A model generated the notes under the pieces. It saw only the letters and a list, made by a program, of their open reading frames with translations. It was not told the DNA's origin and made no database searches. A stretch of 64,000 bases of DNA from an uncultured Actinomycetota bacterium (lineage in GTDB: Bacteria; Actinomycetota; Actinomycetes; Mycobacteriales; Micromonosporaceae): the NCBI GenBank assembly GCA_963809545.1, contig CAWEKD010000004.1, positions 120,971-184,970 on the forward strand. Reading direction: 5' to 3'. Below, piece after piece: positions 4,027 to 64,000 of the stretch. The stretch's first letter is position 1. Each line of letters opens with the position of its first letter. The position numbers and the translations under genes are program-made.

Positions 4027-4087
4027 CGCGTCAGGCTAGCCCTCCCAGTTCCGAAACGGAACGGTTCCGTTTCACAAGTGGTCCGAC

Positions 4088-4456: not shown

Positions 4457-4713
4457 CGGCGCTCCCGCATCGCGAACCGCCCCACCGCCACCGAGCCGGT
4501 GAAGCCCAGCAACGACAACACCACCAGCACCGGCAGCGCGGTGCCGTCCTGGTAGTAGGCCGCGCCCGCGGCGATCGCGATCACCGTAATGGCCAACAGG
4601 ACGTCGGTGGCGACGATTCTATCCAGAGTAGACGGACCACGGACGATCCGAATCAAGGTCAGCCCGCCCGCCACCGCCAACAGCAGCGCTACCGCACCAA
4701 CGACAACGGTCAT
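4453..4713 (-). CDS. mrpF: Monovalent cation/H+ antiporter subunit F
   Basis: 86 aa, 3 hydrophobic segments, LIRIVRGPSTLDRIVATD motif; position between mrpE and mrpG. Confidence 0.8.
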   Translation of the reverse strand: MTVVVGAVALLLAVAGGLTLIRIVRGPSTLDRIVATDVLLAITVIAIAAGAAYYQDGTALPVLVVLSLLGFTGSVAVGRFAMRERR

Positions 4714-6895: not shown

Positions 6896-7359
6896 GAGTG
6901 CTCCCGTGGGTCACGCGGGGTCGGAATCACGGCGGCCGCCCCGGCCGCGGCGACCTCGCTGTCCGGGGTGTCGTCCTCCCCCACCTCAGACCGGTCCCGA
7001 TCTTGCTCCGCCTGGCGCATGATCCGCCGGTCCTCGACGTCGTCCTGCACCTCGTCGTGCCCGGTCAGGTACCAGCTGCGGTACGCCATCGCCAACAGGA
7101 ACGCGGTCATCCCGAACGTGATCACGATGGCGGTGAGGATCATGGCGTGCGGGAGCGGATCGCTCATCTGGTCCTGCGGAGTGGTGCCGACGATCGGCGC
7201 CCCGCCGGCGCGGCCGGTGGTCAGAATCAGCAGGTTGGCGCCGTTGCCCAGCAGGACCACCCCCATCACCACCCGGGTGAGGCTGCGCTCCAGCAGTAAC
7301 GCCACGCCCGCGGCGAACAGCACCCCGATCAGCAGCACGTACCAGAGGTTGGGACTCAC
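6892..7359 (-). CDS. mrpC: Monovalent cation/H+ antiporter subunit C (NuoK-like)
   Basis: 155 aa. N-terminal NuoK-like membrane part (LLERSLTRVVMGVVLLGNGANLLIL) plus an acidic tail. Confidence 0.82.
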   Translation of the reverse strand: MSPNLWYVLLIGVLFAAGVALLLERSLTRVVMGVVLLGNGANLLILTTGRAGGAPIVGTTPQDQMSDPLPHAMILTAIVITFGMTAFLLAMAYRSWYLTGHDEVQDDVEDRRIMRQAEQDRDRSEVGEDDTPDSEVAAAGAAAVIPTPRDPREHS

Positions 7360-10199
7360 ACCGGCTCCTTCACCCGCATCCGAGCCCGGCTCGGCAGCCC
7401 CGCCTCCTGCTGGCGGTCCACCTCCGCGCCGAGACTACGCAGGATGTCCAGGACCAGACCGATCACGATCAGGTACACCCCGATGTCAAAGAACACCGAG
7501 GTGACCAGGTGCACCTCACCGAACGCCGGCAGCTGCAGGTCGAGCAGCGCGCTCTGTAGCACCTGCCCACCCAGCACCATGGCGGCCACCCCGGTGCCGG
7601 CGGCGAACAACAGCCCGGTGCCCAACACCACGCCCGCATCGGCGGGCGCGGCCGCGTTCAGTTCCTGCCGACCACCGGCCAGATAGCGCAGGGTCAGGGC
7701 GAGCCCCGCCACCAGCCCTCCGGTGAAGCCACCGCCGGGTGCGTTGTGGCCGGAGAACAGCAGGTACAGCGAGAACAGCACGATCGGGTGGAACACGAGC
7801 CGGGCCACCACCTGCAGCATGATCGACTGCCGCCGGGCCTCCGGGCTGTCCCCCGCCATCAGCCACGGCCATCCCCGGTCCCGCTGCCCCCGCACCGGTC
7901 GGCTCCCCCGCCGCCGGGTGAACGCCTGGCTACGGCGGAAGATCAGGCTGGCCACCCCGGTCCCCGCCACCACCAGCACGGAGATCTCCCCCAGGGTGTC
8001 CCAGGCCCGCATGTCGACCAGGGTCACGTTCACCACGTTGCGGCCACCGCCGTCGGCGAAGGCCAGCTCCGGAAAGTCCACAGAGATCGGTATCGCCGCC
8101 CGGCCGGCCACCGCCGCGTACGCCAGTCCGGACATCACCAATCCGACCGCGACCCCGACCGCTATCCGCCACCGCCGGGTACGACGGGCGGGGCGCTCGG
8201 AGAACCGCGCCGGCAACCGGCGTAGCACCAACACGAACAGCACGATCGAGACGGTCTCGACCAGGAACTGGGTCAGCGCCAGGTCCGGCGCACCGTGCAG
8301 GATGAACAACGCCGCGATGGCGTAGCCGCAGACCCCGACCAGGATCGCCGCGGTCATCCGCCGCTGGACCCGGGCGGCGAACACCGCCGCCCCGCCCGCG
8401 ACCGCCCCCACGATCAGCTGGGGCACGGTCATCGCCAGCGACTGCGGCCCCGTCGTGGGGAACAGCCGTCCCCACAGCAGCACTCCCCCGCCGAACACCA
8501 CCAGCACCAGCAAGGTCGTGCCGAGGTAGAACGGCAACGATCCCCGCTGGGTCGCCGCGGTCAACACCACCGCCAGCCGGTCCAACCACCGCCGGCACCA
8601 CTGGTAGACGTCCTCACCGGTAACCGGCAGCCCGCCCCGGGTGAGGCTCGGGCGGCGGCTGATGACCCAGGCCAGGCCGAGCCCCGCGACCAGCGCCAGC
8701 CCGGACAGGGCCAGCGCCACTGTGGGCCCGTGCCACAGCGCCAGGTGCTGGTCGGCCCCCGTCTCCGGAAACGCCGACACGTAGCCGGACAGCAGCCGGT
8801 CCACCACCGGCGCGCCCGCGCCGGCGATCAGGCCGACCGCGGCCAGCACCAGCGCCGGGGCCACCAGCAGCGGGCCTGGCCGCTCCCCGGCGGTGGCGGG
8901 GTGGCCGGCCCGGGTGCCGAACGCCCCCCACAGGAAGCGCAGCGTGTAGGCCACGGTCAGCACCGACCCGGTCACCAGACCGGCCAGCACCAACCGGTCG
9001 ACCGTGCCGCCGGCGGCGAAGGCCGCGAACACCCCCTCCTTGGCCACGAACCCGAGCGTGGGGGGCAGGCCCGCCATGGAGGCGGCCGCCAGGACCGCTA
9101 ATCCGCACACCACCGGCATCCGCCGGCCCAGCCCGGACAGCTCCCGCACATCCCGGGTACCGGTGGCCCGGTCGATGATCCCGACCACCAGGAACAGCGC
9201 GGCCTTGAACAACGCGTGGGCCAGCAGCATGGCCGCACCGGCCAGCGCCGCCGCCCGGGTGCCCGCCCCCAGCGCCACCGTCAACAGCCCCAACTGGCTC
9301 ACCGTGCCGTAGGCCAGCAACAGCTTGAGGTCGTGCTGCCGCAACGCCGCTGCCCCACCCAGCAGCATGGTCACCACCCCGGTGGTGAGCACCACCGCGC
9401 GCCAGGGAGAGTCGGCGGCGAAGGCGGGGGACAGCATCGCCATCAGGAACACCCCCGCCTTGACCATGGCGGCGGCGTGCAGGTAGGCGCTGACCGGGGT
9501 GGGGGCGGCCATGGCCGCCGGCAACCAGAAGCTGAACGGGAAAATCGCCGACTTGGACAGCGCCCCGATCAAGACCAGCACCAACGCCACCGTCAGGTAG
9601 GGCGCCGCCGGCGGGGCGGCGGCCAGCACCTCCGACAGCCGGTACGAGCCGGCGTGCTGCCCCAGCATGATCAGCCCCACCAGCATCGCCAACCCGCCCA
9701 GGGTGGTCACCAGCAGGGCTTGTAGCGCCGCCCGGCGGCTGGTCTGCCGGGCAGGATCATGCCCGATCAGCAGGTAGGAGAAGACGGTGGTCAACTCCCA
9801 GAACACGTACAGCAAGAGCAGATCGTCGCTGACCACCAGGCCGAGCATGGCGCCGGCGAAGGCCAGGAAGGTCGCCGCGAACCGGCCCAGCCCCGCCTCC
9901 TCGGCGTGGAAGTACCGAGCACTGTAGATCAGCACCAGGGTCCCGACCCCGCTGACCAACAGCACCATCAACCACGGCAGGGTGGTCAGCCGGAAGCTGA
10001 GTCCTAACCCGAGTTCCGGTACCCAGGGGTGGCTCTCCACCACCGCACCGGTGCGGATCTGGTCGAACTGGGTCAGTGCCCATCCGAGGGTGCCGGCCGG
10101 CACCACCGCCAGTCCGTACAGAGCAGAGCGGCCCCATTGCCGCACCGCCCAAGGTGCGAATAGGGCCGCCAGCGCGTGAGCAGCCAGCAGTACGAGCAC
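7356..10199 (-). CDS. mrpA: Monovalent cation/H+ antiporter subunit A fused to subunit B (group-2 Mrp MrpA/B)
   Basis: 947 aa. NuoL-like N-terminal region plus a C-terminal MnhB-like region (DTLGEISVLVVAGTGV, LFSGHNAPGGGFTGGLV). Confidence 0.9.
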   Translation of the reverse strand: MLVLLAAHALAALFAPWAVRQWGRSALYGLAVVPAGTLGWALTQFDQIRTGAVVESHPWVPELGLGLSFRLTTLPWLMVLLVSGVGTLVLIYSARYFHAEEAGLGRFAATFLAFAGAMLGLVVSDDLLLLYVFWELTTVFSYLLIGHDPARQTSRRAALQALLVTTLGGLAMLVGLIMLGQHAGSYRLSEVLAAAPPAAPYLTVALVLVLIGALSKSAIFPFSFWLPAAMAAPTPVSAYLHAAAMVKAGVFLMAMLSPAFAADSPWRAVVLTTGVVTMLLGGAAALRQHDLKLLLAYGTVSQLGLLTVALGAGTRAAALAGAAMLLAHALFKAALFLVVGIIDRATGTRDVRELSGLGRRMPVVCGLAVLAAASMAGLPPTLGFVAKEGVFAAFAAGGTVDRLVLAGLVTGSVLTVAYTLRFLWGAFGTRAGHPATAGERPGPLLVAPALVLAAVGLIAGAGAPVVDRLLSGYVSAFPETGADQHLALWHGPTVALALSGLALVAGLGLAWVISRRPSLTRGGLPVTGEDVYQWCRRWLDRLAVVLTAATQRGSLPFYLGTTLLVLVVFGGGVLLWGRLFPTTGPQSLAMTVPQLIVGAVAGGAAVFAARVQRRMTAAILVGVCGYAIAALFILHGAPDLALTQFLVETVSIVLFVLVLRRLPARFSERPARRTRRWRIAVGVAVGLVMSGLAYAAVAGRAAIPISVDFPELAFADGGGRNVVNVTLVDMRAWDTLGEISVLVVAGTGVASLIFRRSQAFTRRRGSRPVRGQRDRGWPWLMAGDSPEARRQSIMLQVVARLVFHPIVLFSLYLLFSGHNAPGGGFTGGLVAGLALTLRYLAGGRQELNAAAPADAGVVLGTGLLFAAGTGVAAMVLGGQVLQSALLDLQLPAFGEVHLVTSVFFDIGVYLIVIGLVLDILRSLGAEVDRQQEAGLPSRARMRVKEPV

Positions 10200-19534: not shown

Positions 19535-19795
19535 TCACGAGCGCCTCCGACGGATCAGGATCGTGATCAGCGCGACCGCGGCGGCGGAGGCCGCCACCAC
19601 CAGCCACGGGGTGCCGGTGCCGCCCGCTTCCCGCATCCGGGCCGCGGTGCGCCGGGCGGTGGCCCGCGCCCGGGCCGGTACGTCGACCCGGGCGGCCAGT
19701 TCCTGCACCGTCTGCGCCAGCTCCTGGCGGGTCTGCGTGATCTCCTCCCGCAGCGCCGCCGGATCGGTGGTCTGATTCGGATTCGCTGCGGTCAT
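19535..19795 (-). CDS. DUF3618-like protein (coiled coil plus C-terminal TM anchor)
   Basis: 86 aa, DPAALREEITQTRQELAQTVQELAARVDVPARA then hydrophobic tail WLVVAASAAAVALITILI. Confidence 0.6.
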   Translation of the reverse strand: MTAANPNQTTDPAALREEITQTRQELAQTVQELAARVDVPARARATARRTAARMREAGGTGTPWLVVAASAAAVALITILIRRRRS

Positions 19796-20310
19796 GGCCT
19801 CTCCTCGGATGCGCCGTTGCTCCGGTGCTCACCCCGATGCCGCACCCCGGTGGTCACGGCGTCGATGTCCTCCCGGAGACTGCGGCTGCGCTCATCCAGC
19901 ATCGGAGGCATCGCTTCCTGCACCCGATTGCGGCCGATCAGCGCCGCGATCCCGGCCACGATGAACAGCGCCACCGTGACGATCAATGCCGCCACCCAGG
20001 CCGGCATCACTTCCGCCAGCAGCAGGATCACGGTCGCCACCAGCGCCCCACCGCCGTACAACGCGATGAGTGCCCCACCGCCGAGGAAGCCGGCTCCCTT
20101 GCCGGCCTGCCGTCCCCGCTCGGCCAGTTCGATCTTTGCCAGGGTGAACTCGTCCCGGATCAGTCGGGACAGCTGCTCGGTGGCCTGCTGTACCAGGCGA
20201 GGGGTGGATTCCTCCTCCACCGGCCGAGTCGGTTCCCCCAGCACCGGACGCGGTGAGGCGGTCGGTCGGGTATCCGTACGGGTCGGGCCGCCGTTCGCCA
20301 ATTCGGACAT
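19792..20310 (-). CDS. Actinobacterial holin-X / phage holin family (superfamily III)-like membrane protein
   Basis: ORF trimmed to ATG at 20310 (MSELANGG...). ATEQLSRLIRDEFTLAKIELAERGRQAGKGAGFLGGGALIALYGG followed by a second TM helix. Confidence 0.6.
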   Translation of the reverse strand: MSELANGGPTRTDTRPTASPRPVLGEPTRPVEEESTPRLVQQATEQLSRLIRDEFTLAKIELAERGRQAGKGAGFLGGGALIALYGGGALVATVILLLAEVMPAWVAALIVTVALFIVAGIAALIGRNRVQEAMPPMLDERSRSLREDIDAVTTGVRHRGEHRSNGASEERP

Positions 20311-20438
20311 GGTTACCTCCTCGTCGGCTCGTCCGAGTGGTACCCGGTGGACCGGGCAGTCATACCTGGCTGGTCCGCCCGGCGCGGGTGGAGAAATCCA
20401 CGGGTGTGTCCACCGACCGGGTGGGGTATCGCATCGGT

Positions 20439-21008
20439 ATGACCTCCAGTGACCAGCCACGGCACTACCCCTCGCCCGAGGACGAGGGCATTCCGGACTA
20501 CGCCGATGACACCTCGACCGCGTTCGACGAAGCCGACCGGCCGCGGTTCAACGACTCACCCCAGGTGTTCCCGGCTGACCGGCCGCAGGCGCTGGACGAG
20601 TTCGGGCTGACCGCGGAGGAGCAGCGGCGAGGTGAACCATTGGCGCGGCGGCTGGCTCGGGAGGAGCCGGACGTGGGGGACGAATGGTCACCTGGAGGTG
20701 GGCACCTCACCGATGAGGCGGACCCGGCCTCGTCGGAGGAGGAGATGGCGCAGGACTCGGAGGTGCTCGGTACCGAGCCGGAACCATCCCCCGACCCGGC
20801 TGCGCGCCGGCTCGGCGCCGGCTACGACGACGACTCCCTCCCCGAGTACGGGGAGGTGGGGCGGCTCCTGGAGCCGGACGAGGGGGCGGGCCCCGACGAG
20901 GAGAAGGACGTGCTGGCGCAGGACGAGGGTGAGGCCGGCGGCGGCCTGTCCGCGGAGGAGGCGGCGCTGCATGAGCTGCCGGACGACGAGGTGCCGTACG
21001 AGCGGTAA
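20439..21008 (+). CDS. Highly acidic hypothetical protein (DUF5709-like)
   Basis: ORF trimmed to ATG at 20439. 189 aa, D/E-rich (EDEGIPDYADD...), divergent from the holin-like gene. Family name from memory only. Confidence 0.5.
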   Translation: MTSSDQPRHYPSPEDEGIPDYADDTSTAFDEADRPRFNDSPQVFPADRPQALDEFGLTAEEQRRGEPLARRLAREEPDVGDEWSPGGGHLTDEADPASSEEEMAQDSEVLGTEPEPSPDPAARRLGAGYDDDSLPEYGEVGRLLEPDEGAGPDEEKDVLAQDEGEAGGGLSAEEAALHELPDDEVPYER

Positions 21009-40385: not shown

Positions 40386-40488
40386 TCAACGCCGCCGTGG
40401 GCCGGGCCGGTCCCATAGCCCTGAAGTGGGATGGCCGAGGTCGGCTGGGTTGTGCCGAGCAACGCGAAGGAGCGACAGGTGCTGGACT

Positions 40489-41127
40489 GGCTGAACTCCA
40501 CGGCGGTCACCGCCTTCGGGGTGCCGACGTCCTGGGCGGAGCTGCTGGGTTTCGGCACCGGCGCCCTCTGTGTGCTGCTGGTGGTGCGCCAGCACATCGC
40601 GAACTGGCCGATCGGCATCCTCAACGTCCTGCTGCTGATGGTGGTGTTCTGGACCGCCGGGCTGTACGCCGATGCGGGCCCTGCAGATCGTCTACGTGCT
40701 CCTCGGCGCGTACGGCTGGTGGCACTGGGCCCGTGGCGGAGCTGACCGCGGCACCCTGCCGGTGCGGCGCACCACCGGCACCGAGTGGCTGGCTTTAGCG
40801 GCGGCCGGCGCCGCGGGCACCGGCGCGCTGTGGTTCTTCCTGGCGCACTACACCGACTCCACGGTGCCGCTGCCGGACGCGCTCACCACCGCGTTGTCGC
40901 TGCTGGCCACGTACGGGCAGGCCCGCAAACTGGTGGAGAGCTGGTGGCTGTGGATCACCGCCGACCTGATCTACATCCCGCTGTACGGCTACAAGGGGCT
41001 CTGGTTGACCGCGCTGCTCTACGTCGGGTTCCTGTGTCTGTGTGTGCTCGGGCTGCGGGCCTGGCGCGCCGATCTACGCCGCCGCACCGGCGCCGGTGAC
41101 CCGGCCGTGACGGGGGTGGCCGGATGA
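40489..41127 (+). pseudogene. pnuC: Nicotinamide riboside transporter PnuC, apparent 1-nt frameshift
   Basis: GTG at 40489 with GAAGGAG SD: VLDWLNSTAVTAFGVPTSWAELLGFGTGALCVLLVVRQHIANWPIGILNV...LYADA. It continues in the frame of ORF 40672..41127 (QIVYVLLGAYGWWHW...). Junction gcgggccctgcag at about 40672..40684. Confidence 0.8.
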
Positions 41128-52064: not shown

Positions 52065-52107
52065 GGCGGGGATAGGTATAGCCGGCAACCGACGTGGAAG
52101 GGCTGTG

Positions 52108-54480
52108 ATGTCTACCCTGCCGGCGACCATCGACCCGTTGACCGACGAGGAGCTACGTCGGCTGGACGCGTACTGGCGTGCCGCCAACTATCTCACCGTC
52201 GGCCAGATCTACCTGCTCGCCAATCCGCTGCTGCGGGAACCGCTCCGGCCGGAACACATCAAGCCTCGGCTCCTGGGGCACTGGGGCACGTCGCCGGGAC
52301 TGAACCTGATCTACGCCCACCTCAGCCGGGTGATCGTGGCGCGCGACCTCAACATGATCTTCATTACGGGTCCGGGGCACGGCGGCCCGGCGATCGTGGC
52401 CAACACCTGGCTGGAAGGCACCTACAGCGAGCTGTATCCGTCGGTGAGCCTGGACGAGGCCGGCATGGCGCGTTTGTTCCAGCAGTTCTCGTTCCCGGGC
52501 GGTATCCCCAGCCACGTGGCCGCGGAGATACCTGGATCCATTCACGAGGGCGGCGAGCTGGGGTACTCCCTGGCGCACGCGTTCGGCGCCGCCTACGACA
52601 ACCCGGACCTGATCGTGGCCTGTGTGGTCGGTGACGGGGAGGCCGAGACCGGGCCGCTGGCGGCCAGTTGGCTGTCCAACGCGTTCCTCAACCCGGTCAC
52701 CGACGGCGCGGTGCTGCCGATCCTGCACCTGAACGGCTACAAAATCGCCAACCCCACCGTGCTGGCACGGATCCCGGAGGAGGATCTGCTGGCGATGCTG
52801 CGGGGATACGGCTACCAGCCGTACCTGGTCTCCGGCGACGACCCGGCGCTGGTCCACCCACAGTTGGCGGCCACATTGGACCACTGCGTGGACGAGATCA
52901 CCGCGATTCAGGCCCAGGCCCGCACCGAGGGGCGGGTGCAACGGCCGCGCTGGCCGATGGTGGTGCTGCGTACCCCCAAAGGATGGACCGGGCCGGTGGA
53001 GCGGGAGGGGATGCCGGTGGAGGGCAGCTGGCGTTCCCACCAGGTGCCGCTGGAGCGGGTGCGGCAGGACGCGACACAGCTCGCCGAGCTGGAACGGTGG
53101 CTGCGCAGCTACCGCCCGGAGGAGCTGTTCGACGCCATCGGCGCACCCGTGCCGGAACTGCGCGCGCTGCCGCCGACCGGTCGGCGGCGGATGAGCGCCA
53201 ATCCACACGCCAATGGCGGCGAGCTGCGGCGGGAGCTGGTGCTACCGGATTTCCGGGAGTACGGGGTGGACGTCCACCGCCCGGGCGACCCGCCCGCCCA
53301 GGCCACCCGGGTACTCGGCGCCTGGCTGCGGGACGTGATGGCGCTCAACCCGGACCGGTTCCGGCTGTTCGGCCCGGACGAGGTGGCCTCCAACCGGTTG
53401 GACGCGGTGTTCGAGGTGACCGACCGGGTGTTCCTGCCCCCCACCACCCCGACCGACACCCAGTTGGCCCCGACCGGGCGGGTGATGGAGGTGCTGTCGG
53501 AGCACCTGTGCCAGGGGTGGCTGGAAGGGTATCTGCTCACCGGCCGCCACGGCGTGTTCACCAGCTACGAGGCGTTCATCCACATTGTGGACTCGATGGT
53601 CAACCAGCACGCGAAGTGGCTGAAGGTGAGCAACGAGATCCCCTGGCGGCAGCCGATCTCCTCCCTCAACTACCTCCTGTCCAGTCACGTCTGGCGGCAG
53701 GACCACAACGGGTTCTCCCATCAGGATCCCGGCTTCATCGACCATGTGCTCAACAAGAAGCCGGAGCTGGTGCGGGTCTATCTGCCTCCGGACAGCAACA
53801 CGCTGCTGTACGTGATGGACGAGTGCCTCCGCAGCCGGCAGCGGATCAACGTGGTGGTGGCGGGAAAACAGTCCCAGCCGACCTGGCTGGGGATGGACGA
53901 CGCCGTCCGCCACTGCCAGCGCGGGTTGGGCATCTGGCCCTGGGCCTCCACCGACGACGGTGCCACCCCGGACGTGGTGCTGGCCTGCGCCGGCGACGTC
54001 CCCACCCTGGAGACACTGGCCGCGGCGGACCTGCTGCGACAACGGCTGCCGCAGTTGAAGGTACGGGTCATCAACGTGGTGAACCTGCTGCGGTTGCAGT
54101 CACCGTCGACCCAGCCGGAGGGGTTGTCCGACGCGCTGTTCGATGCGCTGTTCACCACCGACCGTCCGGTGATCTTCGCGTACCACGGTTATCCCTGGTT
54201 GATCCACCGCTTGGCGTACCGCCGCGCCAACCACCACAACTTCCATGTGCGGGGGTACCAGGAGGAGGGCACCACCACGACCCCGTTCGACATGGTGATG
54301 CTGAATAACCTGGACCGGTTTCACCTGGTCATGGATGTGATCGACCGGGTGCCGGGGCTGGGTCAGGACGCGGCCGGGCTGCGGCAGGAGATGGTGGACG
54401 CCCGCCAGGACGCCCGGGACTACACCCGCCGCTACGGGCAGGACACCCCGCAGATCCAGAGTTGGTCGTGGCCAGGGTGA
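52108..54480 (+). CDS. xfp: Xylulose-5-phosphate/fructose-6-phosphate phosphoketolase
   Basis: About 790 aa. [42 protein letters not shown] signatures. ATG at 52108 (GTG at 52105 also in frame). Confidence 0.95.
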
Positions 54481-56469: not shown

Positions 56470-58326
56470 TCAGAGCCGGACGATCCGCCCCTCTCCCCCT
56501 TCGGGGTAGTCAGCGGCGCTGACCCGGCCGTCCAGCCCGACGACCAGGTAGTCGGCCAACGCCTGCTGATAGGTCAGGCCGACCGAGGTGAACGGCAATC
56601 CCCGGAACGGGTACTGGTCGCCGCCGCGGGCGCTGAAGTCGTTGGTGGCCACCGAAATCGGTGCCCCCGGCACCACCTGCCCGTCCTGCACGATCACGGT
56701 CCCGTCATCGAGCACCACCTGGCGGATCCGCTCCCCCGGCACCAGCACGGTGCCGTGGTCGTCCACCTGCTGGGCCTGTCGGGTCGGGTCGTAGACGAAC
56801 CGGAATCCGGCCACCTGGGCGAACCGGCCGTCGGCGGCCGGAATGCCGGAGACCGCGTTCTCCAGGATCTCCTTGAACTGCTCCCGCGGCACCTCCGGCA
56901 CCACCGCCACGAAGTTGCCGAACGGGGCGATGTCGAACGTGGTCAGCGCGGTCAACTCGCCCGGCGGGATCAGCGAGTTGTTCCGGATACCGCCGCCGTT
57001 CTGCAGCGCCACGTCCGGCGCGGCCACCCCGTACTCGGCGGCCCGCTGCCGTCCGGCGAACAGCAGCGCGTCCGCCATGAGGTTGCCCAGGTTGGTTTCC
57101 TCCGTCCGCACCCCGGGCTCCCGGCGCCCCTCCAGCGCCACCTCGGAGGTGGCCAGCACGGTGGTGGCCAGGTTCTCGGTGTAGGCGATCACCGGGTCGA
57201 CCACGGTGCGCTGCAGGTGCCGGTCCGGAGCGACCGCGTCGGGGGCCACCCCGGACACCCGGACCAGGCCGCTGTCGGGGCCCACACTGAGCACCCGGCC
57301 GTGCCGGTCGAAGTTGACCACGAGCTGCCCCACGTACTTGTAGTCACCGGGGGTGGTGACCACCGGGACGTCGATCCCGGCGGCGTCGGTGACGTACAGC
57401 GGGTAGCGCAGCGGCTGCCCGGTCTCCGGGTCCAGCGAGATCTCGTCCCCGGGCACCAGCGGGGTGTCGTCGGCGGCCAGCAGCTCATCCCCGCCCCCGG
57501 CGATCGCCACATCCACGTTGCGCAGCAGGGGGATCAGGGCCCGGTCCTCGGACAGCCCCTGCAGGTGGCTGATCAGGATGATCTTGTTCACGCCGCGAGC
57601 GGTCAGCCGGTCCACCTCGTCCTGGACCAGCTCCGCCACGTTCTCCAGCACCTTCACGTTGCGTGGGCTGGAGATGCTCGCCAGCGCCGGGGTGGTGGCG
57701 CCGACGATCCCGATCTGCTCTCCCCGCTCGCGGACCACCGTGCTGGCGACGATGGTGCCGTCGGCGGCCAGCGCCGCCAACCGGGGCTCGTCACTGACGT
57801 CCAGGTTGGCGGACAGGAACGGAGGCGCGTTCCGGCCGAATCCCTCGATGAAGTCGGCCAACACGTCCGGTCCGAAGTCGAACTCGTGGTTGCCGATCGC
57901 GATCGCGTCGTAGTCCAGCGACTTCAGCGCCAGCGAGTCGTAGAACGGCACCCCCTTGGTCAGGCTGGCGTTGAACTCCGGCCCGGCCAGGAAGTTGTCG
58001 CCGGAGGAGACCAGCAGCACTCCCCGCCGGCCGGCCGCGCCGGCGGGTGGTTTACCGGTGGTGGCCTCCCGCTTCAGCTGCTGCACCAGGGTGGCGAATC
58101 GCGCTATTCCTCCAAAGTCCGGGTTGTCCGGGGCATGGATCAGCTGGGACTCACCGTCGTTGTGGTGCAGGATGGTCAGGGTGTACGCCGGCCGGTCGGT
58201 TCCCGGGTGCGCCTCGGCCGGGGCCGCCGCCATCGTAGCGGCCACCGCTGCCGCCACCACCGCCGCAGTCACCGACCGCAGTGGGCGCCGGCCCTTCCGT
58301 CTGTTCCATTGTGAGAACACGGTCAT
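56470..58326 (-). CDS. Secreted bifunctional metallophosphatase / 5'-nucleotidase
   Basis: 618 aa. Signal peptide ending AAPAEA-HP, HHNDGESQL, GNHEFD, C-terminal 5'-nucleotidase domain (GGGIRN, NDFSARGGDQY). Confidence 0.85.
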   Translation of the reverse strand: MTVFSQWNRRKGRRPLRSVTAAVVAAAVAATMAAAPAEAHPGTDRPAYTLTILHHNDGESQLIHAPDNPDFGGIARFATLVQQLKREATTGKPPAGAAGRRGVLLVSSGDNFLAGPEFNASLTKGVPFYDSLALKSLDYDAIAIGNHEFDFGPDVLADFIEGFGRNAPPFLSANLDVSDEPRLAALAADGTIVASTVVRERGEQIGIVGATTPALASISSPRNVKVLENVAELVQDEVDRLTARGVNKIILISHLQGLSEDRALIPLLRNVDVAIAGGGDELLAADDTPLVPGDEISLDPETGQPLRYPLYVTDAAGIDVPVVTTPGDYKYVGQLVVNFDRHGRVLSVGPDSGLVRVSGVAPDAVAPDRHLQRTVVDPVIAYTENLATTVLATSEVALEGRREPGVRTEETNLGNLMADALLFAGRQRAAEYGVAAPDVALQNGGGIRNNSLIPPGELTALTTFDIAPFGNFVAVVPEVPREQFKEILENAVSGIPAADGRFAQVAGFRFVYDPTRQAQQVDDHGTVLVPGERIRQVVLDDGTVIVQDGQVVPGAPISVATNDFSARGGDQYPFRGLPFTSVGLTYQQALADYLVVGLDGRVSAADYPEGGEGRIVRL

Positions 58327-58365
58327 GCGCCTCCGCTCCTTGGTAGGTCGCTACCAGTACAGCAG

Positions 58366-58959
58366 CTAACCAGCGGAGGCGGAACCGCCGTCTACCAAGA
58401 AGTGTCCGAGAGGCGACTGTGGAGTGTCACGGTGCCAACCGAGGGCTTCAAACAGCGCACCGGCGGTGACGAGATCCACCGCCCCATTGGCGGTGATCAG
58501 CTGCTGCAGGTCCCGCCGGACCGTCCGGACGCTCACCCCCAGCTCCTCGGCGAGCTGCGCGTACGACCGACCGCCGCTCATCCGGATGATGATCACATGT
58601 TGGCGGCGGGTGGGTGGCTGCCAGTTACGGATTCCGGCGCGTTCCCGTACCAGCTCACGAATCGCGGCCGCGGCGACGTACCCCCACCGCACGCTGGCCG
58701 CGCCCAGGGTGTACCGGGTGCGCGCGGACAGCTTCCGCCGCAGTTCCGCCACGTCGTTTTCGATGGTCCGGAGTGAGAGCTTCAGCTCCCGGGCAATGGT
58801 GTCCTGGGTGGCTCCCGTCAGCAAGCGCCATAGTATCGCCACTTGTCGGGTTGACACTGGACGAGTGTCCGATAAACTCGGCCGGATCTTCTTAGACATT
58901 CGACGTGATGTCAGGTTGTCTGAACCCCCTGACAAGGGTTCTAAAACCTTGGCGCGCAC
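58366..58959 (-). CDS. Transcriptional regulator made of two tandem LuxR/GerE-type HTH domains
   Basis: STRQVAILWRLLTGATQDTIARELKLSLRTIENDVAELRRKL and RRQHVIIIRMSGGRSYAQLAEELGVSVRTVRRDLQQL. Start uncertain (GTG 58959 or ATG 58899). Divergent from the sdpC-like gene. Confidence 0.68.
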   Translation of the reverse strand: MRAKVLEPLSGGSDNLTSRRMSKKIRPSLSDTRPVSTRQVAILWRLLTGATQDTIARELKLSLRTIENDVAELRRKLSARTRYTLGAASVRWGYVAAAAIRELVRERAGIRNWQPPTRRQHVIIIRMSGGRSYAQLAEELGVSVRTVRRDLQQLITANGAVDLVTAGALFEALGWHRDTPQSPLGHFLVDGGSASAG

Positions 58960-59382
58960 CTCAGGAAGTGGATCACCCCCACCGCCATAAAGGCGCTGGA
59001 ATATAGATGCACTTCGCGACCGGGACAGCGCTCATAGACCCCCCTTGGGATCAATCCCCGCGCAACACTCCGCTGTGCGCAGCATACCCGCTGTCGAAGC
59101 CGACGATAAGTCCGGCGACTTATAGAAGTTAACCACTTAAATGATGTGGCCAAATTAGACATAACACTACATCACGCCCATAGGTGGATGAGGTAAGCAA
59201 TCTCCAAAGATCCACCATTGTCCGAATGGCAAGCTCCATGCGGAATTGACTGTCCACTTTCCGTAAATATCAATTGTTCAGCTTGCCATCGGGCAATTAC
59301 GCATTACCATCCGGACACGGTGCCCCAGCCCCATCTGACTGGGACACCTACTTCCCCCAGTGATCCACATAGGAGGGACACC

Positions 59383-60069
59383 ATGCGGAGGAAACTCCTA
59401 CTGGTGGCGACGATCTGCGCCCTGACCGTCGGGGTCACGTCTCCGCCAGCCGGCGCCTACCAGTCGCTCGGCGCCACCGACACCCCGGCGGCCGAGACGG
59501 TGCACACCGACTCGCTCGCCCCCGCTGGCAGCATCGACGCCACCGAGCGGGACATCCTGGCCGGCCTGCTCTTCGGCATCGGCGACTTCGCTGCGGAGAT
59601 CGGCAATGAGGTCCCGGCGATCGCCGGGCTCTCGAAGGCGGAATACCAGGCTCAGGCTGAGGAGATGCTGGACGGCTTCATCTCCGCCCACAGTGTGGAG
59701 CTGAAGCCGGTACTGGCAGACATTCGCAGCGGTGACATCAACCGGGTCGAGGTCGGCCTGGATGGCCTGGCCCGGCTCTACCTCGGCTACGTGGAGAGTC
59801 GGGTCAGCGCGGAGGAGTACGCCCTGCTGCAGCAGGGGCAGGAGTACCTCCCCGCCTGCGGTCTGGCGTGGGCCTGCGTCGTTACCGTAGTCATTCACAA
59901 CACCGTCGCGATCACCTCGGCGGCTGCCGTCGCTATATCCGCGGCTCTTGCCCTCGCCATCACGGTGTGGTGCGGGGTCACGGCCGAGGATTGCCAGATC
60001 GAGCGCGCTCCCTCTCGTGCGGAGGCGGAATACTTCCGCGCAGAAATCGCCCGCGCCGCACGGGCGTAA
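59383..60069 (+). CDS. SdpC-family antimicrobial peptide precursor-like secreted protein
   Basis: ATG 59383 with AGGAGGG SD. Signal peptide MRRKLLLVATICALTVGVTSPPAGA-YQ. GLLFGIGDF and PACGLAWACVVTVVIHNTVAITSAAAVAISAALALAITVW parallel B. subtilis SdpC GLLFGQGEV and PSCGLYAVCVAAGYLYVVGVNAVALQTAAAVTTAVW (recalled from memory). Confidence 0.72.
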   Translation: MRRKLLLVATICALTVGVTSPPAGAYQSLGATDTPAAETVHTDSLAPAGSIDATERDILAGLLFGIGDFAAEIGNEVPAIAGLSKAEYQAQAEEMLDGFISAHSVELKPVLADIRSGDINRVEVGLDGLARLYLGYVESRVSAEEYALLQQGQEYLPACGLAWACVVTVVIHNTVAITSAAAVAISAALALAITVWCGVTAEDCQIERAPSRAEAEYFRAEIARAARA

Positions 60070-60076
60070 CGTACAC

Positions 60077-60111
60077 CCTGGCCGGACCAGCGCGTGGCTG
60101 GTCCGGCCAGG
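60077..60111 (+). promoter_or_regulatory. Strong intra-operon stem-loop between the precursor and processing genes
   Basis: 15-bp perfect stem cctggccggaccagc / gctggtccggccagg, 5-nt loop gcgtg, 8 nt after the precursor stop. No T tract. Confidence 0.55.
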
Positions 60112-60150
60112 CCCCCCTGCACACGGTGAAATCTCCGGAGACGGACTCTG

Positions 60151-60792
60151 ATGCCCCGCACCGCTCTAGCTCCTCATCAGGAAGCACCCCGTACTGCCAG
60201 CGATCAACAGCATTCCGATCCAGCCACGCCGGATCCGGCGGTGGTACGACGCATTCGCATGGTCACCGCTGTCGTGGTCGTGCTCATCGCAGCCACAACA
60301 GCGCTTTTCTCTCTTCCCTCCCACATTCACCTGCCCCGCAGCTGGCAGACCGGCTTCTCCTCCGTGCAGTCCCTGGTACCTCAAGGGTGGGGATTCTTCA
60401 CGCGTAACCCACGGGAAGCGAGCATGATCCCGTACGTCTACGACGGTACGACGTGGGTCAACGCCAACCGCGGCCCTAATGCGCAACTGCGGTATCTCCT
60501 GGGGCTCAACCGGGAAAGCCGCCTCACCGAATTCGACATCGTCCAGCTTCTGCAGCAGTCCGCCACCGTCACGACGTGGACCCCCTGCGCCGAGCCGGAG
60601 GTCGACTCATGCGTCGCCTCCGCCACCGCCGCCGGCGTGGTCCCGGTGGTGACCTACGGCTACCAACTCCGGCTGTGCGGTGACGTGCTCATCATCCGGC
60701 AGGAGCCGATCCCGCTGGCGTACGCCGGCTTGGGTTACCGCCCACCCATGGAGGCGATCCGTTTCCATGTCACCTGCCAGGAGCCCGCATGA
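60151..60792 (+). CDS. SdpA-family antimicrobial peptide system protein-like
   Basis: 213 aa, one N-terminal TM helix (MVTAVVVVLIAATTALFSL), then LVPQGWGFFTRNPRE, which matches the PQGWxFF(T/S)xxPR motif I associate with SdpA. ATGA coupling to the next gene. Confidence 0.62.
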   Translation: MPRTALAPHQEAPRTASDQQHSDPATPDPAVVRRIRMVTAVVVVLIAATTALFSLPSHIHLPRSWQTGFSSVQSLVPQGWGFFTRNPREASMIPYVYDGTTWVNANRGPNAQLRYLLGLNRESRLTEFDIVQLLQQSATVTTWTPCAEPEVDSCVASATAAGVVPVVTYGYQLRLCGDVLIIRQEPIPLAYAGLGYRPPMEAIRFHVTCQEPA

Positions 60793-61775
60793 GCAGTACC
60801 GTCCCGACCTCCGCCCGGGAAGAGAAGACCCTGGTTCAGCGCCTCGATCAGTTCATCCTGCGCGTCTCCCCGTTCAACCAGGTGTTGGGGCTGACCCGCA
60901 CCATGCTGGCGATCGCCACCGCCCTCACCCTGGCGGCCACCCCGAACGACCAGCTGTTCTTCCGCAGCGTCAACTACCCCGAGGGAGTGGTGTGCGGGCG
61001 CGGCCTGGGCCAGTGGACGCTCTACTGTCTCACCGGCGGCAGCCGGTACTTTGACCTGGTCGTCTGGGGCTCCGTGCTGGTGCTCCTGGTGGTCGCCACC
61101 GGCTTCGCTCCGCGGTGGACCGCGATCCCCCACTGGTACATCGCGTGGAGTTTCGCCGCCAGCAGCCCGATCCCTGACGGGGGCGACCACATCACCACGA
61201 ACCTGGCCCTGCTGTTGGTGCCGCTGTGCCTGCTGGATCGGCGGCGCTGGCACTGGTCACCGGACACCACGTACCACCAGCGCAGTGTAGGGGTGAAGTT
61301 CGCCGCCTACGGAGCTATCGCACTGTGGATCCTCCAGATCTTCGTGCTCTACTTCCAGGCGGCGGTGGCGAAGTTCGGCGTCACCGAGTGGGCGGACGGC
61401 AGTGCGCTGTGGTACTGGATGCAGAACCCCACCTTCGGCCCCGCCGGATGGATGCGGGACCTGGCCCTCGGCATCCTGCAGTATCCGCTGTTCGTGCTGC
61501 TGGTCACCTACGGCACCCTGCTGTTCCAGGTGACGCTGGCGTTCTCCCCGCTGTACTCCTGGGGGTGGCGGCGCTTCTACCTGTTCGCCGCGGTGGTGTT
61601 CCACTTGGGGATCGCGGTCACGATGGGGCTGTGGTCGTTCTCCATCGCCATGATCGCCGCCGACCTGATCTTCCTCATCCGGCCCCATGAGTCGCTCCAC
61701 GTCCCATGGTTGTCCCGGCTATGGCAGGTCGGGCGAGAACGCGTACTCAGCCTCAGCGGTAGATCCCACTCCTGA
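60789..61775 (+). CDS. SdpB-family (HTTM / vitamin-K-carboxylase-like) polytopic membrane protein
   Basis: 328 aa, about 7-8 TM helices. DGGDHITTNLALLLVPLCLLDRRRWHW resembles the SdpB/HTTM DGGDQ...L motif. Size equals B. subtilis SdpB (about 320 aa). Confidence 0.72.
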   Translation: MSSTVPTSAREEKTLVQRLDQFILRVSPFNQVLGLTRTMLAIATALTLAATPNDQLFFRSVNYPEGVVCGRGLGQWTLYCLTGGSRYFDLVVWGSVLVLLVVATGFAPRWTAIPHWYIAWSFAASSPIPDGGDHITTNLALLLVPLCLLDRRRWHWSPDTTYHQRSVGVKFAAYGAIALWILQIFVLYFQAAVAKFGVTEWADGSALWYWMQNPTFGPAGWMRDLALGILQYPLFVLLVTYGTLLFQVTLAFSPLYSWGWRRFYLFAAVVFHLGIAVTMGLWSFSIAMIAADLIFLIRPHESLHVPWLSRLWQVGRERVLSLSGRSHS

Positions 61776-61792
61776 CCCCACACCGGTACGGC

Positions 61793-61828
61793 GTGGCCCC
61801 GGTCCTTGCGCACAAGGACCGGGGCCAC
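61793..61828. terminator. Bidirectional hairpin terminator between the sdpB-like and GH130 genes
   Basis: 16-bp perfect stem gtggccccggtccttg / caaggaccggggccac with 4-nt loop cgca. Confidence 0.68.
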
Positions 61829-61841
61829 CCGGTTACGCCCG

Positions 61842-62861
61842 CTAGGCGCCAGACGGTTCCGGTGCCGGACAGGTCAGCAGGAAATCCACCACTTCGGAGT
61901 AGGACGCGCTGGCGAGCCCGACGCAGGTGTCGGCGGCCCCGTAGTACAGCCGGAGCCGGTCCTGCTCCACGTCATGCACCAGGCCGGTCGGGAACACCAC
62001 GTTCGGGGCGTCGCCGGTCCGCTCGTACGGCTCGACCGGGCTGAACACCCACTCGTCGGTGCGGCGCAGCACCCGCTCCGGCCGCTCGGCGTCCAACAAC
62101 GCCAGCCCGGCCCGGTAGACCAGCCCACCCGCCACGCTCTTGATGCCGTGGTAGACCGCCAGCCACCCGTGCGTGGTCAACACCGGCGGGGGCCCCATGC
62201 CGATGCGGACGTTGTCCCACCACGGGCCCGGCCGCGCCGGCAACACCAGCGTCGGTTCGGACCAGGACCGCAGATCCGGGGAGCGGGACAGCCACACATC
62301 CGAGCGCTGCGTGTCCTGGATGGTGGGGCGATGGAACATCACGTACTGGCCATCGATCCGGTACGGCAGCAGCGAGGCGTTCTTGTCCGGCGGCGGCATC
62401 ACCACCCCCAGCAGCTCCACCTCGACGAAGTCGGTGGTGCGCGCCATCGCCACCGCCGGGCCGGCGGGGCCGTAGGCGGTGAATGTCAACACCCAGGCGG
62501 CCTGGTCCTCCAGCCAGACCACCCGTGGATCTTCCACCCCCCACCGGGACGCCTCTCCGAGGTCCCCGGCGCTGATCAGCGGAGTGGGCGAGATCTCCCA
62601 CCCGGTCGCCCCGTCCAGGCTGCGGGCGACCGTGAGGTGGGAGATCCCGCGTCGGTCCTCCACTCGACACACCAGCACCGTCTGCCCATCGACCTGGGCA
62701 GCGGCCGGGTTGAAGACGGTGTTGACCGGATAGGGCCAGTCCGCCGGGCTCAACACCGGGTTGTGCGGACTACGCCGAAACAGCCCGGCTACCTGCTGGC
62801 CGGGCCGGTGGCGCTCGGTGGCTGCGAGCTGTGATCCGGCAGCCGAGGGCTCGTCGCCCAC
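61842..62861 (-). CDS. Glycoside hydrolase family 130 (beta-mannoside phosphorylase/glycosidase-like)
   Basis: 339 aa from GTG 62861 (GGAGGTG SD). NPVLSP...VFNPAA...GVEDPRV...DKNASLLP...HGWLAVYHG...YRAGLALLD...NVVFPTG...YYGAADT. Confidence 0.85.
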   Translation of the reverse strand: MGDEPSAAGSQLAATERHRPGQQVAGLFRRSPHNPVLSPADWPYPVNTVFNPAAAQVDGQTVLVCRVEDRRGISHLTVARSLDGATGWEISPTPLISAGDLGEASRWGVEDPRVVWLEDQAAWVLTFTAYGPAGPAVAMARTTDFVEVELLGVVMPPPDKNASLLPYRIDGQYVMFHRPTIQDTQRSDVWLSRSPDLRSWSEPTLVLPARPGPWWDNVRIGMGPPPVLTTHGWLAVYHGIKSVAGGLVYRAGLALLDAERPERVLRRTDEWVFSPVEPYERTGDAPNVVFPTGLVHDVEQDRLRLYYGAADTCVGLASASYSEVVDFLLTCPAPEPSGA

Positions 62862-64000
62862 CGGGGTTCACCTCCTGCCGCGCGGGGCACACGGATCTCA
62901 CCAAACAGTTTCCGGAGCTTAACCGGGTGGGTCCGGTGCGGCGCACGCAGTCGGCGGGTAGGAGCGGCGGCGGTCCGGAACACCTCGGCGAACGTGGCCG
63001 CCACCGCCGGCCAGCTCAGTGCCGCGGCGGTGGTCAGCGCGGCCTGCTGGGCGGTGCGGAACCGCTCCGAATCACCCAGCAGGTCACAGACCGCCTCTGC
63101 CAGGGCGTCCGGGTCCTCGAACGGCACCAGGGTGCCGGCGGCCGGCCGGCCGGCCGGGGTGACGAGTTCCCGGGCGTACGGGTAGGAGGTGGATACCACC
63201 GGGCAGCCGGCGGCCATCGCGAACGTCAACGCGCCCGAGGAGGCCTGCTGCGAGGTCCGGTAGGGGGTCAGGTAGAGGTCGGTGCGCTGCAGCAGGGCCG
63301 CCAGCTCAGGATCGGTCAGGAAGGTGTCGACGAACCGGACATGGTCGGCTACCTGCAGCCGCTGGGCCAGCGCGACCAGTTCCTCGCGGTACTGCTCACC
63401 GCTGGTGCGGACCACCTCCGGGTGGGTGGCCCCGGCGATCAGGTAGACCACCTCCGGGTGCTGACGGACGATCGCGGGCATGGCCTCGATGGCGGTCTCC
63501 AGCCCCTTGCCCGGGCGCAGCAGGCCGAACGTGGTCAGCACCCGCCGCCCCGCGGTGTCGGACAGGGCTTCCGCCACCACCGGCCCAATCTCGGCCGGGT
63601 CTACCGGCTCCGCCAGCGAGGTCGGCACACCGTGTGGCACCACCACGAGCTGCTCCGGCGTCCCCCAGCCGGCCTTCAGCGCGATCTCGCGGGCGCTCTC
63701 GGTGAACACCGTCACCCGCCGCGCCCGCCGGCACAGCTGGGTGAGCACCTCCGCCTGCTCCGGCTCCGGGCTGGACAGCACAGTGTGCAGGGTCACCGCG
63801 TACGGCATCCCGATCGCCGACAGTTCGTCCGCGAAATCCAGGACGTACCGACCCTGCGAGCCGCCGAAGATGCCGTACTCGTGCTGGATCACCACCAGGT
63901 CTGCGCCGGTGGCCGCTACCGCGTGCGCTGCCCGCCGGTAGTCGCCCCGGTCGTCCTGCCGGATCACCTCGACCACTTCCGGCCCGTACGACAGGCCGTC
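62789..64000 (-). CDS. GT4 family glycosyltransferase (5' end runs off the window)
   Basis: The frame stays open to position 64000 upstream of the listed GTG. GT4 C-terminal block SGALTFAMAAGCPVVSTSYPYARELV. The tail overlaps the GH130 start by 73 nt. Confidence 0.78.
   Translation of the reverse strand, partial: DGLSYGPEVVEVIRQDDRGDYRRAAHAVAATGADLVVIQHEYGIFGGSQGRYVLDFADELSAIGMPYAVTLHTVLSSPEPEQAEVLTQLCRRARRVTVFTESAREIALKAGWGTPEQLVVVPHGVPTSLAEPVDPAEIGPVVAEALSDTAGRRVLTTFGLLRPGKGLETAIEAMPAIVRQHPEVVYLIAGATHPEVVRTSGEQYREELVALAQRLQVADHVRFVDTFLTDPELAALLQRTDLYLTPYRTSQQASSGALTFAMAAGCPVVSTSYPYARELVTPAGRPAAGTLVPFEDPDALAEAVCDLLGDSERFRTAQQAALTTAAALSWPAVAATFAEVFRTAAAPTRRLRAPHRTHPVKLRKLFGEIRVPRAAGGEPRWATSPRLPDHSSQPPSATGPASR

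Follow-up and report, generated by a model that had tools for sequence, protein, structure and literature searches.

A putative SDP-family toxin island in an uncultured Micromonosporaceae bacterium, with a candidate self-protection gene beyond the end of the analysed stretch

How would a bacterium that makes a membrane-active peptide of the SDP type protect itself when neither SdpI nor SdpR is encoded nearby? The question is raised by a locus on contig CAWEKD010000004.1 (assembly GCA_963809545.1) of an uncultured actinomycete of the family Micromonosporaceae, from which we analysed a stretch of 64,000 nucleotides, hereafter the window. Positions 58366-61828 encompass, in this order, a luxR-type gene, an AT-rich spacer, the precursor gene sdpC1, a hairpin, sdpA, sdpB and a terminal hairpin, that is, all the elements that an initial annotation, made from the sequence alone, had placed there. 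To our knowledge, experimental study of SDP-family toxins has been confined to Bacillus subtilis. We conclude that the locus is a genuine SDP-family system, so that the family assignment of the annotation was right, and that its distinguishing points are dual precursors with four cysteines, a LuxR-type regulator, and, in the place of SdpI and SdpR, a fourth gene, orf167, whose product combines two transmembrane helices with a PH-like domain. Our overall reading, to which we assign a probability of about 0.65, is that the window holds the left part of an SDP-family membrane-active toxin island in which orf167 stands in for SdpI and SdpR in self-protection or sensing.

The two processing proteins are assigned at the level of curated families. 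SdpA, which carries the motif VPQGWGFFTRNPRE and a single N-terminal hydrophobic helix (read from the sequence, not from a transmembrane predictor), scores 71.4 bits against TIGR04034 (cut-off 53.1) and 82.7 bits against Pfam PF17418 (cut-off 25). SdpB, with the motif DGGDHIT...RRRWHW, scores 235.8 bits against TIGR04033 (cut-off 178.4; E = 6.7e-70) and covers profile positions 2-274 of 276; the PGAP label of the identical protein HLU46106.1 is likewise SdpB family, with SdpC1 and orf167 called “hypothetical” there. The second and third genes are therefore what the annotation had taken them for, SdpA and an SdpB of about 328 amino acids with the DGGDHIT...HW motif. They are adjacent and co-directional, with sdpB overlapping the sdpA stop by 4 nt, and the precursor gene lies 81 nt upstream of sdpA.

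SdpB had also been described as an HTTM or vitamin-K-carboxylase-like protein. The Pfam HTTM family (PF05090) was not matched by SdpB itself in a local Pfam scan (E ≤ 1), although it is present on many SdpB homologues at 35-56% identity, and it is the superfamily relation that holds. A profile of 30 SdpB homologues found a sole match among PDB sequences, human GGCX (E = 4e-8), and with an AlphaFold2 model of SdpB (predicted local distance difference test, pLDDT, 94) the top 15 Foldseek matches in the PDB were all GGCX (template modelling score, TM-score, 0.48-0.59 over ~290-330 aligned columns). The likeness includes the YF.A.vKKL..W..G segment, in which the invariant K195 of SdpB aligns with the catalytic K218 of GGCX; because this catalytic lysine is kept in the SdpB family, chemistry rather than mere scaffolding is suggested. 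Unlike GGCX, SdpB is devoid of the large lumenal domain (328 versus 758 residues), and we know of no gamma-carboxylation of SDP.

The precursor SdpC1 is recognised by a combination of features. The ATG of its gene is preceded, 7 nt upstream, by AGGAGG, and the protein consists of a signal peptide of approximately residues 1-25 (59383-59457; read from the sequence), a pro-region that contains GLLFGIGDF, a hydrophobic core and, at the C-terminus, an amphipathic tail that is conserved; its motifs are MRRKLLLVATICALTVGVTSPPAGA followed by YQ, then GLLFGIGDF and PACGLAWAC, after which the Ala/Val-rich core begins. All the hallmarks of a Sec-signal SdpC precursor claimed for the first gene are accordingly present. 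Against TIGR04032, a model built from Bacillus-type sequences, SdpC1 reached 27.6-28.5 bits (E = 1.2e-6), so that the check proposed with the annotation gave a significant match that, even at 28.5 bits, missed the curated cut-off of 99.2 bits; the second precursor of the island, SdpC2, also stayed under this cut-off with 44 bits (E = 2e-11). Both precursors have a precomputed match (E ≤ 1e-5 class) to PF26137 (Toxin_SdpC), and neither was matched in a scan with our local Pfam copy, which seems to be without this family. A context-derived profile, made from the 60-odd genes that precede sdpAB in other genomes, matched SdpC1 with E = 7.8e-23 and also matched SdpC2. By profile, position upstream of sdpAB, signal peptide and C-terminal hydrophobic core, SdpC1 is a member of the SdpC family.

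The predicted mature toxin of SdpC1 (Table 1) is flanked by two pairs of cysteines, C-x5-C and C-x6-C. Its cleavage sites and disulfides are placed here by sequence, with the C-x5-C at the same position as the start of the B. subtilis peptide, which comprises C141-S182 (PMC6818787). SdpC1 and SdpC2 agree in their signal peptide and GLLFGIGDFAAEIGNE block, and the core of both opens with A-C-G-L-A-x-x-C, contains H-N-T-V and closes with the second cysteine pair, C-G-V-x4-C. SdpC1 differs from SdpC2, which represents the type found in a sister species, in the length and composition of the core, which has 46 residues in SdpC1 and 42 in the 222-residue SdpC2. The four-cysteine type of precursor also occurs in loci of Microbacteriaceae; the precursors of Streptomyces have a single cysteine. 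Across phyla, the last ~17 residues of the precursors (60019-60069 in sdpC1) retain the motif L-x-x-[ED]-x-x-[VI]-A-x-h-[TA]-x-x-L, with the acidic residue present in 66 of the 67 non-redundant precursors. Speculatively, this tail may form a helix by which SdpA or SdpB recognises the precursor. The possibility that SdpB acts as a Glu carboxylase on the conserved acidic residue was set aside, given that this position is Asp in 27 of the 67 sequences.

The annotation had stated that no recognisable sdpRI immunity genes accompany these three genes. In the called genes within ~10 kb on either side of sdpB, precomputed Pfam matches indeed include no SdpI, DUF1648 or ArsR domain, and there is no sdpRI module. 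Ten open reading frames (ORFs) of the window with at least two predicted transmembrane segments were scanned, five ORFs of the Mrp operon and two soluble-looking ORFs being left unscanned, and all ten belong to other families (Mrp antiporter subunits, MFS transporters, PnuC, a holin-X protein, a CDP-alcohol transferase and two signalling/ATPase proteins). The absence of SdpI and SdpR thus stands, but the implication that there is no candidate does not. Near-identical contigs, with two bases different from the window over a compared 1.1 kb, continue past base 64000, and there, after genes for a GH130 protein and a glycosyltransferase, the remaining genes of the island, sdpC2 and orf167, span approximately 0.65-2.1 kb beyond the edge. 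Because these genes lie just past base 64000, the apparent lack of immunity genes is largely a window-edge effect; the locus is cut at the end of the window and needs to be considered with the 2.1 kb that follow.

A sister species, whose SdpB is 76% identical and in which the flanking genes are the same, has a compact version of the locus. On its contig L091, a luxR gene is followed by sdpC-sdpA-sdpB-orf167, with orf167 beginning 2 nt after the sdpB stop (1-nt gap), and the genes for GH130, the glycosyltransferase and a second precursor are absent. Judging by this arrangement, the functional unit is luxR plus C-A-B-orf167, and the window species would have gained a duplicate of the precursor gene and an unrelated insert of two genes, which together separate sdpB from orf167. 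GH130 and the glycosyltransferase were rejected as components of the system: compared with the sister species, they represent an insertion, and tblastn found counterparts in none of 80 related loci. A neighbouring protein of 135 residues also had no counterpart in these 80 loci by tblastn.

These related loci come from a scan of one genome per species, which gave 238 relatives of SdpB; the census comprises the best 80 of the 238 loci, from Microbacteriaceae, Streptomyces, Micromonosporaceae, Myxococcota, Bacteroidota, Calidithermus and others. The neighbouring ORFs were clustered de novo, and hidden Markov models (HMMs) of the clusters were then run on six-frame translations. SdpA was found by HMM in all 80 loci and, by tblastn, immediately before sdpB and in the same orientation in 77; an SdpC-like gene was likewise identified in 77, and the order C-A-B on one strand is kept in 74. 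The orf167 family is represented within 6 kb of sdpB in 39 loci; a YtrA-like GntR regulator is present in 29 and a stand-alone DUF1648 protein in 16. Two or more precursor genes are present in 11 loci and, therefore, the SdpC1/SdpC2 pair is not unusual. Loci of the sdp type are widespread and are routinely named by PGAP in Actinomycetota, and weak sdpABC homologues have been noted in a genomic island of Brevibacterium (PMC5719810).

The orf167 family is defined by two hydrophobic helices and a domain of ~90 residues in which the alignment contains a near-invariant P-[FL]-x-R-[TR]-R-[FL]-P motif and GGWG. The AlphaFold2 model of orf167 (pLDDT 86) consists of an N-terminal strand, a transmembrane hairpin, six further strands that form a PH-like fold, and a C-terminal helix, so that the protein has the strand, the hairpin, the PH-like sandwich and both motifs of its family. 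Because RRPLSRRQR precedes the first transmembrane helix and the loop between the helices is acidic, an N-in topology is suggested, which would put the PH-like domain in the cytoplasm. The best Foldseek match is EROS/CYBC1 (8kei_D, E = 8e-5), and classical PH and PTB domains are also retrieved. By family tests, orf167 is not a member of bPH_2 or of the YdbS-YdbT group, its likeness to these being one of fold and topology only.

The position and fusions of orf167 relatives link the family to SdpI. In the census, the gene directly follows sdpB in 11 loci (Microbacteriaceae, Aldehydirespiratoraceae, Calidithermus), lies upstream of sdpC in 24 loci, mostly of Streptomyces and in many cases within a divergently transcribed operon, and is found elsewhere downstream in four. 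The Streptomyces operon, divergent from sdpCAB, consists of genes for DUF1648, an orf167-like protein and GntR, and in about ten census loci DUF1648 and the orf167 module are fused. A homologue search with the single sequence gave only five matches and was repeated with an alignment; the exhaustive profile search then yielded 5,510 representative clusters of the family at E ≤ 1e-3. The best 150 of these 5,510 clusters are mostly proteins of 300-345 residues with the orf167 module at the C-terminus, and all nine sampled long members match DUF1648 in their N-terminal part (E ≤ 0.01), five of the nine above the Pfam cut-off. The DUF1648 domain of these proteins (for example, FPDKIATHFTLDGAADGYSS) carries SdpI motif 1, LP[ED]R[VI][PA][VI]H[WF]..G..D[GR][YF], the external loop that has been proposed as the binding site of the SdpC toxin (PMC2910880). 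In addition, in P0193 of Streptomyces noursei (261 residues), a GntR helix-turn-helix (HTH) domain is fused to an orf167-like module; the product would be a regulator anchored in the membrane and would tie the module functionally to the adjacent GntR genes.

Because the family is associated with, and fused to, both DUF1648, the immunity half of SdpI, and a GntR regulator, we rank orf167 as the best candidate for immunity or sensing at this locus, a candidacy that rests on linkage and gene fusion. In the scheme we propose, the double-HTH regulator of the LuxR type, together with the AT-rich promoter and its GTCCACTTTCCG box, would control sdpC1; the pre-pro-protein would be exported by Sec; SdpA and the HTTM-fold SdpB, with its catalytic lysine, would be needed to free the very hydrophobic peptide of ~46 residues, C159-C204; and the stem-loop after sdpC would raise the precursor message above that of sdpAB. 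The island would add the second precursor, with its 42-residue core, and orf167, an N-in hairpin of two transmembrane helices with a cytoplasmic PH-like domain, probably the ancestral fourth gene of the operon, serving in self-protection, toxin sensing or both. How orf167 might do so can be proposed only tentatively, and we hold the following version to be possible rather than probable: the stand-alone module would be a toxin-responsive partner, in immunity and signalling, of SDP-family toxins outside Bacillus, with the transmembrane hairpin neutralising or sensing the peptide and the PH domain sequestering a transcription factor. A similarly doubtful extension names the sequestered protein, which would be GntR in Streptomyces and might, in the window species, be the LuxR-type protein with two HTH domains, with the PH domain replacing the SdpR-binding half of SdpI. 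If true, the orf167 module would be a widespread, unrecognised class of bacteriocin immunity sensors and the component needed to reconstitute SDP-like systems outside Firmicutes. The family is, in any case, a concrete candidate for self-protection or sensing in lineages without SdpI and SdpR.

Several observations weigh against assigning the locus to a toxin system with orf167 as its immunity or sensing partner. Toxin activity here is extrapolated from two systems of B. subtilis, and our literature searches retrieved no experimental work on an actinobacterial SDP-type system, consistent with what the annotation had said about actinomycetes. SdpC1 falls far below the curated TIGR04032 threshold, as noted, and the sole sdpC of the sister species is closer to SdpC2 than to SdpC1, so that SdpC1 could be a diverging or non-functional copy. 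With respect to orf167, no match was found in Pfam (E ≤ 1, bPH families included) or NCBIfam, and comparison of its profile with PDB sequences gave nothing significant. The family is missing from 41 of the 80 loci, and members of the superfamily also occur away from sdp genes, P0163 by itself and P0204 and P0211 beside lnt. Cluster-derived DUF1648 and GntR profiles match nothing in six-frame translations of the whole window and contig L001, the continuation past the edge, and because the window species is without both, the analogy with Streptomyces transfers only partly. Finally, the structural analogies to EROS and to the enterocin proteins DdE and DdF are equally compatible with a role as chaperone or in export.

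The last point leads to the possibility that orf167 is an accessory of biosynthesis or export, a chaperone or partner of SdpB or a handler of hydrophobic peptides, with immunity coming from elsewhere. This explanation, which we consider unlikely although it is the strongest competitor of the preferred one, would account well for the apparent translational coupling of orf167 to sdpB in the sister species and for the 11 loci in which the gene directly follows sdpB; EROS, moreover, is a chaperone of the polytopic membrane enzyme NOX2, and in Enterococcus faecalis the export of a bacteriocin depends on membrane proteins with PH domains (PMC8657885). It fits poorly with the Streptomyces-type loci, where orf167 is placed in a separate, divergent operon with the regulator and the DUF1648 module, and with the fusions, commonly to DUF1648 and once to GntR. 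Furthermore, because half of the sdpCAB loci and, as far as known, B. subtilis lack orf167, the protein is not generally needed for the function of SdpA and SdpB. Another explanation, for which we see little probability, dispenses with a dedicated immunity gene and lets intrinsic properties of the envelope or unlinked general resistance protect the producer. Neither SdpI, DUF1648, ArsR nor a YtrA-type GntR was detected in the window or in the 8 kb downstream, and half of the related loci show no recurrent accessory gene. In B. subtilis, the SigW regulon, YfhL and YknWXYZ are examples of unlinked resistance. Such secondary, unlinked resistance is documented for that species (PMC2910880, PMC6818787). 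Against this explanation stands a conserved fourth gene, recurrently linked or fused to an SdpI-type module and present in both the window species and its sister, which would be difficult to account for if the gene had no part in the system.

The products might also not be antimicrobial at all, being instead signalling or membrane peptides with a developmental or envelope role, or else sdpC1 might be a decaying duplicate in a silenced island gained by horizontal transfer. The atypical codon usage of luxR and sdpA, the AT-rich promoter and the SdpC1 core, unlike the sister-type SdpC2 in length and composition, would agree with such a view, as would the signalling of SDP through SdpI in B. subtilis (PMC2910880). 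We regard it as very improbable all the same: the ORFs are intact and the ribosome-binding site is strong, the promoter box and the ribosome-binding site are kept between sdpC1, sdpC2 and the sister gene, and both experimentally studied members of the family, SDP and YIT, are toxins (PMC6818787). Moreover, a public assembly collection has the identical SdpB sequence indexed in 237 blocks, of which 21 contigs were read; the gene is therefore widespread and intact, although this count is no test of selection.

The preferred reading, a toxin island with its own self-protection or sensing gene, can be compared with what is established for B. subtilis. The sdpABC-sdpRI system has homologous SdpA, SdpB and SdpC, a Sec signal peptide, the GLLFG motif in the pro-region and a strongly hydrophobic core of ~42-46 residues that opens at C-G-L-x3-C, and processing here presumably depends on SdpA and SdpB as it does there (PMC6818787). 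The differences are equally clear. The genes are ordered A-B-C in B. subtilis and C-A-B here, with a hairpin between the cistrons; a second cysteine pair ends the core and there are two precursor paralogues; the regulator is of the LuxR type, in contrast to the ArsR-type SdpR; and SdpI is absent, with a protein of two transmembrane helices and a PH-like domain as the linked accessory membrane protein. An immunity protein unrelated to SdpI has a precedent, because yitPOM is served by YitQ, a membrane protein without relation to SdpI, and other membrane proteins are encoded downstream of the B. subtilis sdpABC homologues 2 and 4 (PMC6818787). In the yitPOM/yizB-yitQ-yitR system, immunity and regulator genes form a separate operon, as do those for GntR, the orf167-like protein and DUF1648 in Streptomyces, a likeness of organisation; the gene order differs, and the regulation by DegSU has no counterpart here.

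Compared with SdpI itself, the orf167 module is mostly fused, C-terminally, to a DUF1648 (PF07853) membrane domain with SdpI motif 1, and such genes adjoin small regulators, as sdpI does (PMC2910880). In the window species, however, the module stands alone, with neither DUF1648 nor SdpI motif 2, and orf167 has no sequence similarity to SdpI. DdE and DdF of enterocin DD14, proteins of the YdbS/YdbT type, also combine a small transmembrane hairpin with a PH-like domain within a peptide-toxin cluster, and loss of either leads to self-intoxication of the producer (PMC8657885). The toxin considered here differs from that bacteriocin in being Sec-exported rather than leaderless, and no ABC transporter is involved.

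The control of the precursor genes may be shared. The LuxR-type gene, divergent from sdpC1, is, according to the annotation, the only neighbouring regulator; its product contains two HTH domains, its longest ORF encodes 197 residues (other gene calls give 163-177), and no ArsR gene is nearby. A LuxR-type gene occupies the same position in the sister species (contigs L091 and L092), and tblastn found no counterpart of the protein in any of the 80 more distant sdp loci. The 12-mer GTCCACTTTCCG lies at -131 of sdpC1, at -131 of sdpC2 and at -136 of the sister sdpC, in surroundings that have otherwise diverged, and in the sdpC1 promoter it is enclosed by the two arms of a perfect inverted repeat of 10 bp (59226-59235 and 59280-59289). 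Because this box and the context of the ribosome-binding site, (C)TAGGAGGGA, are shared by the precursor genes, a common control of sdpC1 and sdpC2 is suggested, and the candidate regulator that suggests itself is the LuxR-type protein, whose gene is syntenic. A sigma-70-like site at 59283-59310 is a weak match to the consensus; two such sites were found in all, and we rely on neither.

Both stem-loops of the locus are exceptionally stable, with none of the 200 shuffled sequences folding equally well in either case. The one at 61793-61828, the perfect 16-bp hairpin that was said to close the segment and does so, reaches z = -6.0 on the plus strand and -6.5 on the minus strand and lies between the convergent sdpB and GH130 genes. 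A scan for consensus terminators called none, both hairpins being without a T-tract, and the terminal one is, nevertheless, likely a bidirectional terminator. A search of 58000-62200 with Rfam (E ≤ 1) detected no riboswitch or leader RNA, the sole match being a chance microRNA on the terminal hairpin. As for the hairpin between sdpC1 and sdpA, strong stem-loops (z < -2) directly 3' of the sdpC stop are present in 44 of 65 related loci, with a median best folding free energy of -31.6 kcal/mol. Because they recur despite unrelated sequences, a conserved function is indicated, which would be that of a partial terminator or of a 3'-end stabiliser that lifts the precursor message above that of sdpAB. 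The arrangement that the annotation had pointed out as peculiar, C-A-B with a hairpin after the precursor, is thus correct as described but not a peculiarity; cassettes of the SdpC-A-B type, with a hairpin behind the precursor gene, recur as a conserved and widespread design in Actinomycetota, Myxococcota, Bacteroidota and Deinococcota.

Base composition sets the locus apart from its surroundings, in line with the annotation. GC content is 0.52-0.55 at 58800-59400 and 0.63-0.69 across the genes, compared with 0.70-0.74 in the flanks and a window mean of 70%, and the luxR-sdpC spacer of 423 bp has only 53%. GC content at third codon positions (GC3) is 0.74 in luxR, 0.85 in sdpC, 0.77 in sdpA and 0.91 in sdpB, against 0.88-0.93 in neighbouring genes. 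The nearest relatives of SdpB are from Microbacteriaceae (50-53% identity), with other Micromonosporaceae at ~42-45%. Because of this kinship and the dip in codon usage, horizontal acquisition of the locus, before the two sister species split, is suggested. The coordinates of all features are collected in Table 1.

Table 1. Features of the sdp island (window coordinates unless a contig is named; GRAVY, grand average of hydropathy; dG, folding free energy)
Feature	Position	Strand	Evidence or remarks
LuxR/GerE-type regulator, two HTH domains	58366..58959	-	Pfam GerE, residues 36-82; HTH_11/Sigma70_r4_2, residues 116-159
AT-rich (53% GC) divergent promoter/regulatory region, luxR-sdpC1	58960..59382	.	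composition
Conserved 12-mer box GTCCACTTTCCG, candidate operator/promoter element	59252..59263	+	same 12-mer upstream of sdpC2 and sister sdpC
sdpC1, Sec-exported pre-pro-toxin, 228 aa	59383..60069	+	TIGR04032 (below cut-off), PF26137, context profile
Predicted mature toxin core C159-C204	59857..59994	+	46 aa, 4.53 kDa, GRAVY 1.59
Stem-loop between sdpC1 and sdpA, perfect 15 bp, GC-rich, 5-nt loop	60077..60111	+	dG -36.1 kcal/mol, z -4.4
sdpA, 213 aa (alternative start 60259, 177 aa)	60151..60792	+	TIGR04034, PF17418
sdpB, 328 aa, polytopic, HTTM/vitamin-K gamma-carboxylase fold	60789..61775	+	TIGR04033, GGCX profile and structure matches
Stem-loop between sdpB and GH130, perfect 16 bp, 4-nt loop	61793..61828	.	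dG -41.9 (+) and -41.3 (-) kcal/mol
GH130 and glycosyltransferase genes, lineage-specific DNA	61842..64000	-	GC3 0.89-0.90, host-like
sdpC2 (222 aa)	L001 13857-14525; start at ~window 64645	beyond window	~0.65 kb past base 64000
orf167 (167 aa)	L001 14797-15300; end at ~window 66088	beyond window	after sdpC2

An SdpB of identical sequence is encoded in a metagenome-assembled genome of Natronosporangium sp. (Micromonosporaceae) and on many metagenomic contigs. At 2422-10199 on the minus strand, the window contains a run of genes for polytopic membrane proteins, including MnhE and NuoK-like subunits, which looks like an operon for a Mrp/Mnh multisubunit Na+/H+ antiporter and would fit an origin from Natronosporangium, a soda-lake genus.

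A few other genes deserve mention. The nicotinamide mononucleotide transporter PnuC (PF04973) extends over two overlapping ORFs on the plus strand, 40431-40745 and 40672-41127, which match profile positions 1-50 and 50-174, respectively; the split could stem from a frameshift or a sequencing error, or the gene could be a pseudogene. At 19792-20460 on the minus strand, a protein of 222 residues strongly matches the actinobacterial Holin-X family (PF07332, E = 6e-35). The phosphoketolase gene xfp has its full length at 52105-54480 (790 residues), and contig L091 of the sister species retains a remnant of 186 residues (2284-2844). A few kilobases downstream of the island, at L001 17942-19132, there is a gene for a bacterial eRF1-like protein (baeRF family), which is kept in the sister species and is adjoined on L001 by a gene for a small protein with weak similarity to NYN/PIN domains.

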